Positions 1 through 27,275 of a stretch of DNA of 32,000 nucleotides are shown one piece after another. Numbering within the stretch: position 1 is the stretch's first letter; every line of letters begins with the position of its first letter. Source of the stretch: Promethearchaeia archaeon (lineage in GTDB: Archaea > Asgardarchaeota > Lokiarchaeia > Sigyniarchaeales > SOKP01); contig JAWOFX010000092.1 of assembly GCA_046497275.1 (NCBI GenBank), positions 1 through 32,000 on the forward strand, in the 5' to 3' direction. The notes below the pieces were generated by a model that saw only the letters and a list, made by a program, of their open reading frames with translations, did no database searches and was not told where the DNA came from. The position numbers and the translations under genes are program-made.

Positions 1-488
1 AATAGTTCAATTGATGGTCTATCTTCTCTGGTTCCAATATATCTCCATATTATATTCATTTCTTTATTGATCATGAATGTAGAAGGAATGGCTAATTTTG
101 TTTTGAGATATATGATATCTATGGCACTTCCAAAGGTATACACATTAAATTTCTTTGCAATTTTCGCTCCTCTGTCAGAAACTAATGGAAATTGATAATC
201 GAACTTATTTGACAATTTTTTGAGATGATTTTTGCTGTCACTGGCAATCGCTATAAAGATCACATTTCTTTTTTGAAATTCTGATATATTATGGTTAATT
301 TTTTCTAAATGTTCCTTGCAGGGAATTCAAAATGCTCCACGGAAGAAATCTATTAATATTCCTTCTGTTGTTTTCAATACTTCTTTAAATTCCAAAGTTC
401 TATTATTGATATCGATCAAAGCTTCAATAGGGCTTTTAGAACCCACTGGAATTCCTCTTTCTGAATTATTATTATCAATAACACTCAT
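1..488 (-). CDS. AhpC/TSA-family (peroxiredoxin-like) redoxin, probable selenoprotein with UxxC motif; 3' end runs off the window
   Basis: Manual translation from ATG at 488: MSVIDNNNSERGIPVGSKSPIEALIDINNRTLEFKEVLKTTEGILIDFFRGAF-[TGA 329-327]-IPCKEHLEKINHNISEFQKRNVIFIAIASDSKNHLKKLSNKFDYQFPLVSDRGAKIAKKFNVYTFGSAIDIIYLKTKLAIPSTFMINKEMNIIWRYIGTREDRPSIEL. The frame stays open for more than 100 codons after the TGA. FFRGAF-U-IPC matches the FYRGxWCPxC redoxin motif, and FPLVSD and AIPSTFMIN are also typical of the family. Confidence 0.88.
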
Positions 489-611
489 AAAAATATTTAT
501 GATTGAATATGATTTATTCCTTCTGTTAATGAAAAATAAATGAACAATATTAGAATAAATGGCTTTTATCGGAATTTTGTTATAGTTTTGTTATTTCTAA
601 AATGCAAATAG

Positions 612-627
612 AAAAACCTTCGCAAGG
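612..627 (-). terminator. Short GC hairpin plus U-tract, terminator-like
   Basis: Minus strand CCUU-GCG-AAGG-UUUUU, a GC-rich stretch in an AT-rich intergenic region. The stem is only 4 bp. Confidence 0.3.
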
Positions 628-670
628 CGGTCAACATAAATCTAAAATTTTCATTTATGTATCATCCCTT
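624..670 (-). promoter_or_regulatory. SECIS-like kink-turn stem-loop
   Basis: Minus-strand RNA: AAGG-GAU-GA-U-ACAUAAAU-GAAAAUUUUAG-AUUUAUGU-U-GA-CC-GCCUU. It has a perfect 8-bp upper stem, a U.U pair, tandem G.A/A.G pairs, a 3-nt GAU bulge, two G-C pairs closing the lower stem, and an A-run at the 5' side of the apical loop. Folded by hand only. Confidence 0.6.
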
Positions 671-695
671 TAATGTAGGTTCATAAAGCTATTTA

Positions 696-806
696 TCATT
701 TAAAATTAAATTTCATAAAATATTGGATTGATTTACATACTGGACAATAATTATAACCATATGAATTTTTATCCAATATTTTACCACAATTCTGACAGAT
801 AATCAT
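696..806 (-). CDS. Small zinc-ribbon protein (36 aa)
   Basis: MIICQNCGKILDKNSYGYNYCPVCKSIQYFMKFNFK-TGA-TAA; CxxC-x13-CxxC. Below the ORF-track length cutoff. Confidence 0.65.
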   Translation of the reverse strand: MIICQNCGKILDKNSYGYNYCPVCKSIQYFMKFNFK

Positions 807-944
807 CAAGATTTGAAAACTTAGAGAGAAATTAAAAATAAGTATTATTAATTAAAATTGCGATAATTTTATAATGATAAATAAATAAATTTTCATTAAT
901 TTATAAGATATCCAAAAAAATTATATAGAATTTTTAGATGAGTA

Positions 945-13747: not shown

Positions 13748-14152
13748 GTGAGATTCATCAAACAAAAAACACATAATAAAATAAATAATAATTTATGCGG
13801 TACCCCAATAGAATTAAAAGAGGGTTATAGTAAATTAAAACTGACTCCCAATAAAAAAATGGTTTTAGATGAGTCAAATTTAATACATGGAGGTTTCACA
13901 TTTAGTCTTGCTGATTATGCTGCAATGTTGGCTGTTAACCACTCTAATGTTGTTTTAACAGAAGCAAATGTTCGGTTTATAAAACCAGTAATTTTGGGGG
14001 ATATACTTATTGCAGAAGCTCATATTATGCAGAAAGAGGGAAAAAAAATTATAGTTGAAGTAAATATAAATAAGAATGGCATTAATGTTTTTGAAGGTGA
14101 ATTTAAATGTTATATTCCAGAGATTCACATACTCGGAGGGGAGATTATATGA
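13748..14152 (+). CDS. PaaI-family hotdog-fold thioesterase
   Basis: HGGFTFSLADYAAMLAVN and VRFIKPVILGDILIAEA. Stop overlaps the next start (ATGA, 14149-14152). Start codon uncertain. Confidence 0.9.
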   Translation: MRFIKQKTHNKINNNLCGTPIELKEGYSKLKLTPNKKMVLDESNLIHGGFTFSLADYAAMLAVNHSNVVLTEANVRFIKPVILGDILIAEAHIMQKEGKKIIVEVNINKNGINVFEGEFKCYIPEIHILGGEII

Positions 14153-26341: not shown

Positions 26342-26378
26342 TTTATAATTTCACCAGATTAATATCAAGATATAATTA

Positions 26379-27275
26379 TCATTTAAATTTTTTCCCAAAT
26401 AGAGTGGCTTTTCTATGAATTTTTAATATATGAATGGGAGATCGCATCATAAACCCCATATCATCCGAGATGCAGTTACGTAAGTCTAAAAACGTATTAT
26501 AATATCTCTTTTCTTGTTTAAATTTTCTATTATTTCCATAAGCTAAATACCTTTTTATAATTTTATCCAAAATGACAGTATCTTCATATACATAATAATT
26601 AAAGGTTCTTAATGACCACTTAACTGCTTCTAATTGATATTTAATGGCATTTAATGAGCGAAAAGGAGATATTAATAGAGAAAAAAAAGAAATCATTAAA
26701 TTCATCACTAAGCTTTTTAAAATCTCCCAAGTTGGGATTTTTGGTCGTTCGATGAGTGTATTTATCGGAACACCATACAAAATTTTATTACTATCAATTA
26801 CATTATTAATAACTATTTTTCTTGGAGCAAATAACACACTAAAAACACGATTTACTTCAAACATCTTATGAAATAATAGCTTACAAAAATGGGATTCAAA
26901 GGTTAGAAAATGACTTACAAACATTCCTGTGGATTTTTGAATCGCAAATAGAACTTTTTTCGGAAGATTTTCATTTGCTTCACGAAATTTATGCTTAATC
27001 TCTAATGCAGAGATATATTTCTCGCACTCCCTCATTATTGCTTTTGAGACATCATTGGAGACAATTATTAATAAATCACAGTCAGATATTGATTTGTTAT
27101 CCTTCCTTTGTGGAACCTGACTTCCAAAAAGAGTTAGAGAGATAAGGTTTTTTAATCCAATCTTTTTTCTAATTATTTTAAAAATATTAATTATGTAATC
27201 TTGAGATTTTTTATTCAAATTTTCAATATTTGATTTTAATTTCCCAAGAGAATTTTTTACATTATCAGTTTCCAT
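26379..27275 (-). CDS. Pol-beta-superfamily nucleotidyltransferase domain protein with C-terminal helical domain
   Basis: LTLFGS...SDCDLLIIV (hG[GS]...DxD). Confidence 0.8.
   Translation of the reverse strand: METDNVKNSLGKLKSNIENLNKKSQDYIINIFKIIRKKIGLKNLISLTLFGSQVPQRKDNKSISDCDLLIIVSNDVSKAIMRECEKYISALEIKHKFREANENLPKKVLFAIQKSTGMFVSHFLTFESHFCKLLFHKMFEVNRVFSVLFAPRKIVINNVIDSNKILYGVPINTLIERPKIPTWEILKSLVMNLMISFFSLLISPFRSLNAIKYQLEAVKWSLRTFNYYVYEDTVILDKIIKRYLAYGNNRKFKQEKRYYNTFLDLRNCISDDMGFMMRSPIHILKIHRKATLFGKKFK

Follow-up and report, generated by a model that had tools for sequence, protein, structure and literature searches.

The first 488 nucleotides of the window (the whole stretch of 32,000 nucleotides analysed here, from a Promethearchaeia genome) very probably contain, on the reverse strand (488..3), the 5' 95% of prxL, an Asgard gene of the Promethearchaeota/Lokiarchaeia type for a peroxiredoxin-like selenoprotein, in which the in-frame UGA of codon 54 is predicted to be read as selenocysteine (Sec). 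The coding sequence (3..488, reverse strand; codons 1-162 of 171) begins with the ATG at 488-486, is interrupted only by the TGA at 329-327 (feature 327..329, reverse strand) and is open to base 3. By alignment with orthologs and with CxxC proteins, codon 54 occupies position 1 of a U-x-x-C redox box, in the motif FFRGAF-U-IPC. Position 2 is the TGC of codon 57 (318..320, reverse strand), which encodes the sole Cys of the full 171-residue protein and lines up with the peroxidatic Cys in peroxiredoxins of the BCP type. The placing of this TGA on the first redox Cys, and of thioredoxin-fold sequence beyond it, by the original prediction was borne out in the reading frame: the Pfam domains AhpC-TSA (PF00578, E 1.2e-19, residues 25-148) and Redoxin (PF08534, E 3.4e-15) both span the TGA, and an AlphaFold2 model (pLDDT 89.5, pTM 0.85) consists of one continuous thioredoxin-like domain.

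The PrxL gene and its predicted selenocysteine codon

Orthologs of PrxL were sought in 40 related genomes and were present in 14 of them at 30-73% identity, all with TGA at the equivalent column; in several of them another TGA stands three codons on, which makes the box UxxU. A collection of species-representative genomes yielded 79 PrxL loci, nearly all from Promethearchaeota/Promethearchaeia and some from Hod-, Hermod-, Thor- and Odinarchaeota, of which 78 include the Sec site. TGA is found there in all 78 (UxxC in 64, UxxU in 14) and neither Cys nor Trp in any, and it is kept down to approximately 30-40% protein identity, with both halves of the gene conserved. Among solved structures the closest relative is a protein of the ResA type (PDB 4nmu, E 5.8e-10), whose WGTW-C-KP-C pairs with U54 and C57 of PrxL. 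Searching 1.84 billion representatives exhaustively and without a profile returned 981 homologs, and CxxC, typically as F[FY]RGxWCPxC, was present in 125 aligned domain matches among the best 150 of these. Homologs of the predicted protein thus carry either TGA, in orthologs, or Cys, in distant relatives, at the position that the original prediction had proposed to inspect. No close Cys-form orthologs were found, and the stop-free matches in the genomes of relatives are canonical BCPs with TxxC.

Because base 1 of the window is also base 1 of its contig (C167) in a 3.85-Mb genome of 188 contigs that is 98.9% complete, PrxL is truncated at its 3' end by the contig start, and its final nine codons, stop codon and 3' SECIS element fall outside the window. 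A blastn search of the source genome with the 3' ends of orthologs gave no match to the lost end of PrxL. The end was recovered by an exact-sequence look-up of the 53-residue N-terminal fragment in other NCBI assemblies: GCA_051746095.1 and GCA_964385245.1 (loci L047 and L048) contain DNA that is 100% identical to window positions 1-900 and extends beyond them, through nine further codons and a TAA to a Loki-type SECIS. At full length the protein comprises 171 residues, with the C-terminus ...SIELLSSKMNEKL-TAA. A second PrxL paralog, also of 171 residues, with the motif FFRGAW-U-HTC and a similar SECIS, follows 183 nt downstream (L047:3517-4275), and in this identical strain the gene of the window (PrxL-a) is the middle one of three tandem SECIS-bearing genes, between a zinc-ribbon open reading frame (ORF) and the paralog (PrxL-b). 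In the sequencing runs, one Logan contig of run X1 passes the window start by 623 nt, and two distinct 111-nt contigs of run X2 extend from window positions 1-30 to 81 nt past the window start; this pair suggests an assembly fork, and the repetition of PrxL and its SECIS in the downstream paralog is the likely cause of the contig break.

In PMC4989117 the lokiSECIS is described as AUGA, a 9-bp stem, an 11-nt A-rich loop ending in AG, and then GA; a pattern scan built on this description located such hairpins 4-21 nt past the stop codon in several PrxL orthologs. Twelve elements were aligned, with compensatory changes in eight of eight predicted pairs, and a covariance model was built from them. 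With this model the SECIS of PrxL itself, in the identical DNA (L047:3514-3576), scores 51.5 bits (E 2.9e-10), its AUGA core beginning 11 nt past the TAA and approximately 365 nt 3' of the UGA. The model also detected elements behind five more orthologs outside the training set. Across the collection a SECIS lies directly 3' of the stop codon in 77 of the 79 loci, the two without a match being L090, where the contig ends before the stop, and L128, which is N-terminally cut. In 85 elements 88.6% of the cells of the helix are paired, compared with 28-57% when the partner is slid, and cells with double changes number 215 against 79 expected; none of 500 shuffles attained the covariation score. 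It is the covariance model and covariation that support the SECIS, and not its stability, since the energy of the PrxL element folded alone is unremarkable (z -0.62). No Rfam family matches the SECIS region up to an E value of 1, and standard SECIS tools fail on Loki elements according to Mariotti et al. 2016 (PMC4989117). In the source genome the covariance model found eight SECIS elements, none of which was identified as that of PrxL; from the two identical assemblies we infer that it lies just beyond the contig end. Nearly all elements continue 3' of the core GA with C-nn-CCUYGCnnnGG, which could be a small hairpin of its own or else the 3' strand of a lower stem whose partner would be a CCC approximately 10 nt before the AUGA.

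Two other readings of the TGA were weighed, and each is extremely improbable. In one of them the TGA is a real stop, owing to a nonsense mutation in a pseudogene or to a sequencing error, or separates two genes for proteins of 53 and approximately 117 residues; gene callers produce precisely such a split, and C-terminal fragments of 96-120 residues are numerous in the databases. Against this stand the TGA in every locus that includes the site, down to approximately 30-40% identity and with both halves conserved, the single Pfam domain and single fold that cross it, and the SECIS behind the stop codon of the gene. The letters are also identical across independent assemblies and runs: a DNA contig from another study (run X2) spans window positions 1-513, and a contig of metatranscriptome library X5 spans positions 1-433, each with zero differences, the latter showing presence but not proving transcription. 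With the TGA in the two other assemblies, in the X2 DNA and in the X5 RNA library, the sequencing error that the original prediction had named as a possible refutation did not materialize.

The second of these readings is an altered genetic code in which TGA specifies one of the standard amino acids (Trp or Gly), and it draws on the close homologs from a word-indexed search, which are either the C-terminal fragments or full-length proteins with Trp at the Sec site. For the two Trp entries with DNA (P0006 and P0024; four contigs), however, the product fits only if TGA is translated as Trp; the Trp entries are gene calls under code 4 on short AT-rich contigs and do not represent TGG, so that the Trp (TGG) homologs that would have spoken against Sec were not encountered. 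Moreover, the wider family has Cys and not Trp at the site, tRNA-Sec and genes of Sec synthesis are present in the genome, and TGA terminates 2 of the 26 long ORFs of the window (GC 29.8%), at 14152 and 26379 as the original prediction had noted, the others ending in TAA (20) or TAG (4). Recoding of the UGA as Sec is thus very strongly favored by the comparisons of sequence.

An upstream zinc-ribbon ORF and its SECIS

The only SECIS in the window (617..679, reverse strand) lies 5' of PrxL, approximately 130 nt upstream of its start. It has all the parts of the Loki type (AUGA, a 9-bp stem, an 11-nt A-rich loop ending in AG, and GA), was detected by the pattern scan and scores 68.3 bits with the covariance model. 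It is located approximately 30 nt behind a neighbor of PrxL, a zinc-ribbon ORF of 36 codons (693..806, reverse strand; CQNC..CPVC) that reads MIICQNCGK...CPVCK...FNFK (806..696) and ends in K-TGA-TAA. A K-TGA-TAA/TAG ending together with a SECIS recurs in the relatives G001, G002, G009, G017 and ABR15, a few relatives have the zinc-ribbon ORF with this ending and SECIS upstream of PrxL, and in G002 the fourth Cys codon of the zinc ribbon is also TGA. The ORF is a candidate microprotein with C-terminal Sec, and the selenoprotein families that PMC11227280 and PMC13188914 list for Asgard archaea do not include it. A SECIS is present within 400 nt upstream of PrxL in only 5 of the 79 loci, one of these elements belonging to an upstream PrxL paralog; because of this rarity, and because PrxL has a 3' SECIS of its own, the element at 617-679 was assigned to the zinc-ribbon ORF.

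Recoding of the PrxL UGA by the element at 617-679, acting from the 5' untranslated region, is very unlikely. The element is on the same strand as PrxL and shortly before its start, and a 5'-untranslated SECIS has reportedly been proposed for one gene of Methanocaldococcus jannaschii. This reading has to contend with the SECIS 11 nt past the stop codon of PrxL in the identical DNA and with the prevalence of 3' elements among the orthologs (77 of 79) over upstream ones (just 5); furthermore, the upstream element always trails a zinc-ribbon ORF ending in K-TGA-stop, and this ORF itself requires a SECIS. In the RNA library, contigs span window positions 1-433 and 575-794, and none bridges PrxL and the zinc-ribbon ORF. 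With the element at 617-679 assigned to the zinc-ribbon ORF, the microprotein, PrxL-a (UxxC) and PrxL-b (UxxC) might conceivably form one putative selenium-based redox relay, in which the C-terminal selenol of the microprotein could be a substrate of the PrxL enzymes or their electron partner; this proposal is speculative and rather improbable, and the small number of PrxL loci with a SECIS within 400 nt upstream weighs against it.

Elsewhere in the window, an ORF at 26379..27275 (reverse strand) terminates in TGA-TAA (26376-26381), an ending that resembles that of the zinc-ribbon ORF. The covariance model found no SECIS near this ORF, and its TGA looks like an ordinary stop.

Selenocysteine machinery and other selenoproteins of the genome

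The original prediction implied that the genome would encode the Sec machinery, and for SepSecS, SelD and tRNA-Sec this was confirmed by matches above the cut-offs of the models, while EFSec and PSTK scored below theirs and are only probable. SepSecS scores 486 bits against a cut-off of 225, and SelD, whose gene has one in-frame TGA, 173 bits against 125. The tRNA-Sec (49.4 bits against the Rfam cut-off of 47) has a UCA anticodon in the anticodon loop CUUCAAA, a 9-bp acceptor stem and a 30-nt insertion in the T-loop, matching the 31-nt T-loop intron of Lokiarchaeota tRNA-Sec (PMC4989117). An EFSec-like GTPase (234 bits, under a cut-off of 242) is encoded approximately 3.3 kb from tRNA-Sec, and a PSTK-like kinase matches its full model with 173 bits, under a cut-off of 290; both of these models were built on other lineages, and the matches make the presence of EFSec and PSTK genes probable. 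The 119-nt tRNA-Sec occurs at two contig ends (G000:C33:11-129 and G000:C165:63-181), one contig also bearing SepSecS and the second the EFSec-like gene, and ARAGORN reported no tRNA-Sec at either locus. Because the tRNA-Sec genes at the two ends are identical, the contigs probably abut, forming a cluster of EFSec, tRNA-Sec and SepSecS.

Judging from the components found, SerRS would charge tRNA-Sec (UCA anticodon, T-loop insertion of approximately 30 nt) with Ser, which PSTK and SepSecS would turn into Sec with selenophosphate supplied by SelD, itself a predicted selenoprotein. EFSec would then bring the Sec-tRNA-Sec to the UGA, directed by the eukaryote-like SECIS hairpin. In the resulting protein, Sec54, at the N-terminus of helix 1, would be the attacking nucleophile and would cycle with Cys57 through a selenenylsulfide.

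Other SECIS-bearing genes of the genome are four of FrhD/VhuD, with two Sec each, and two of VhuU, which are the standard selenoproteome of Loki archaea. Further SECIS-like elements were noted on three contigs. Two tandem hairpins on contig C185 (G000:C185:8705 and 9275, forward strand) each stand behind an ORF of approximately 120-130 residues with an in-frame TGA in the context [ST]-U-x-x-x-F-C (..HQNSTUTTFFCG.. and ..YTSGSUSGYFCM..), and these ORFs may represent a further selenoprotein family. An element on contig C100 (G000:C100:58464-58526, reverse strand; 54.6 bits), 76% identical to that of the window, trails a small ORF that is hydrophobic and contains a TGA in frame (..GEPSGUAYIMSLIPFY..). 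On contig C118 (G000:C118:~75990, reverse strand) a hairpin lies 25 nt past an ORF that includes the adjacent TGA codons of ..DSGC-TGA-TGA-EKVRN.., which could be either a double stop or a pair of Sec residues.

Enzymatic role and comparison with known systems

In the AlphaFold2 model residue 54 directly precedes a helix (residues 55-66), and the nucleophilic Cys of a CxxC box is usually located just before that helix. The nearest folds are those of BCP/PrxQ, AhpE and ResA (TM 0.65-0.80). When PrxL is aligned with PDB 2cx3 and with canonical BCPs from its own genome and from relatives, Cys57 coincides with the peroxidatic Cys, while Arg50 stands in place of Pro, Sec54 in place of Thr or Ser, and Pro135 in place of the catalytic Arg; the motif P-x-x-x-T/S-x-x-Cp and the catalytic Arg that identify a canonical peroxiredoxin (BCP/PrxQ) are therefore absent. 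The NCBIfam model for ResA (NF002854) matches with 57.1 bits, below its cut-off of 170, and this match is a resemblance of motif and fold only.

Because PrxL lacks the Pro, Thr and Arg found in the active site of peroxiredoxins, it is somewhat likely to be a thiol/selenol-disulfide oxidoreductase of the CxxC type (ResA/TlpA-like). It is possible, on a more tentative footing, that PrxL is a true peroxidase in which peroxide would oxidize Sec54 to a selenenic acid, Cys57 would resolve it and thioredoxin would recycle the enzyme, in the manner of glutathione peroxidase. The structures nearest to PrxL, those of BCP/PrxQ and AhpE (TM 0.77-0.80), and the alignment of Cys57 with the peroxidatic Cys agree with a peroxidase, as does the general chemistry of selenoproteins: selenolates react with peroxides without activating residues, and the catalytic residues of peroxiredoxins would not be needed. 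However, all of the residues that define the peroxiredoxin active site (Pro, Thr/Ser and Arg) are replaced, the best sequence matches are to CxxC oxidoreductases (ResA of the PDB at E 5.8e-10, and of NCBIfam at 57 bits), and the genome already encodes a canonical BCP on another contig (C112).

Comparison of PrxL with BCP/PrxQ and AhpE (PDB 3hjp, 2cx3 and 1xxu) thus gives the closest folds (TM approximately 0.8) and a shared position of Cys57 and the peroxidatic Cys, with U54-I-P-C57 of PrxL aligned to S-P-V-C of the Aeropyrum pernix BCP, although PrxL lacks both the PxxxT/SxxC motif and the catalytic Arg. ResA/TlpA proteins (PDB 4nmu and 1st9) have in common with PrxL the thioredoxin fold and a W/F-C-x-x-C box at the start of helix 1, where the N-terminal nucleophilic Cys is matched by Sec54. 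ResA, a Cys-containing factor of cytochrome c maturation, is extracytoplasmic and anchored in the membrane, whereas PrxL carries the predicted Sec, has no recognizable signal or anchor, and is approximately 21% identical to it. The Prx-like and SelL-related proteins of bacteria and eukaryotes likewise have a UxxC or UxxU box in an AhpC/TSA-like fold, and their SECIS elements are bacterial in-frame or eukaryotic, not of the Loki type; PrxL matches the NCBIfam model for SelL-related redox proteins (NF040769) with 38.7 bits, below the cut-off of 120.

Public records of the identical DNA contain a domainless ORF of 53 residues followed by an 'AhpC-TSA' ORF of 117 or 96 residues, and the original prediction was therefore right to the letter in saying that ORF calling had missed the gene: the public annotation splits it at the TGA. 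In another database entry for PrxL (P0047) WGHW is read in place of UxxU, and some entries continue through the SECIS. Splitting, truncation and translation of UGA as Trp under code 4 thus amount to systematic database errors for PrxL, and the value of the window gene lies in the correction of annotation and in its use as a positive control, as a selenoprotein that is recognizable from raw sequence though standard pipelines mis-annotate it. Its biology adds nothing to the descriptions of Asgard archaea by Mariotti et al. 2016 and Huang et al. 2024.

PrxL.1 (UxxU) and PrxL.2 (UxxC) were described in Lokiarchaeota, together with the lokiSECIS and with no Cys beyond the redox box, by Mariotti et al. 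2016 (PMC4989117). According to Huang et al. 2024 (PMC11227280), 43.2% of the Asgard archaea that use Sec have Prx-like selenoproteins, whose SECIS elements are mostly eSECIS-like and of type I, and a 2026 review gives the same set of Asgard selenoproteins. The peroxiredoxin-like selenoproteins of Lokiarchaeia to which the original prediction alluded are exactly this family (PMC4989117; PMC11227280), and the window gene belongs to it, having every defining feature that can be examined: the AhpC/TSA fold, the U-x-x-C box of PrxL.2 (its UxxU relatives corresponding to PrxL.1), Cys in the redox box only, a type I Loki/eSECIS-like hairpin close behind the stop codon, and co-occurrence with SelD, FrhD/VhuD and VhuU selenoproteins and an intron-bearing tRNA-Sec. 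Nothing of substance distinguishes it from other Asgard PrxL genes apart from the contig end that cuts this copy.
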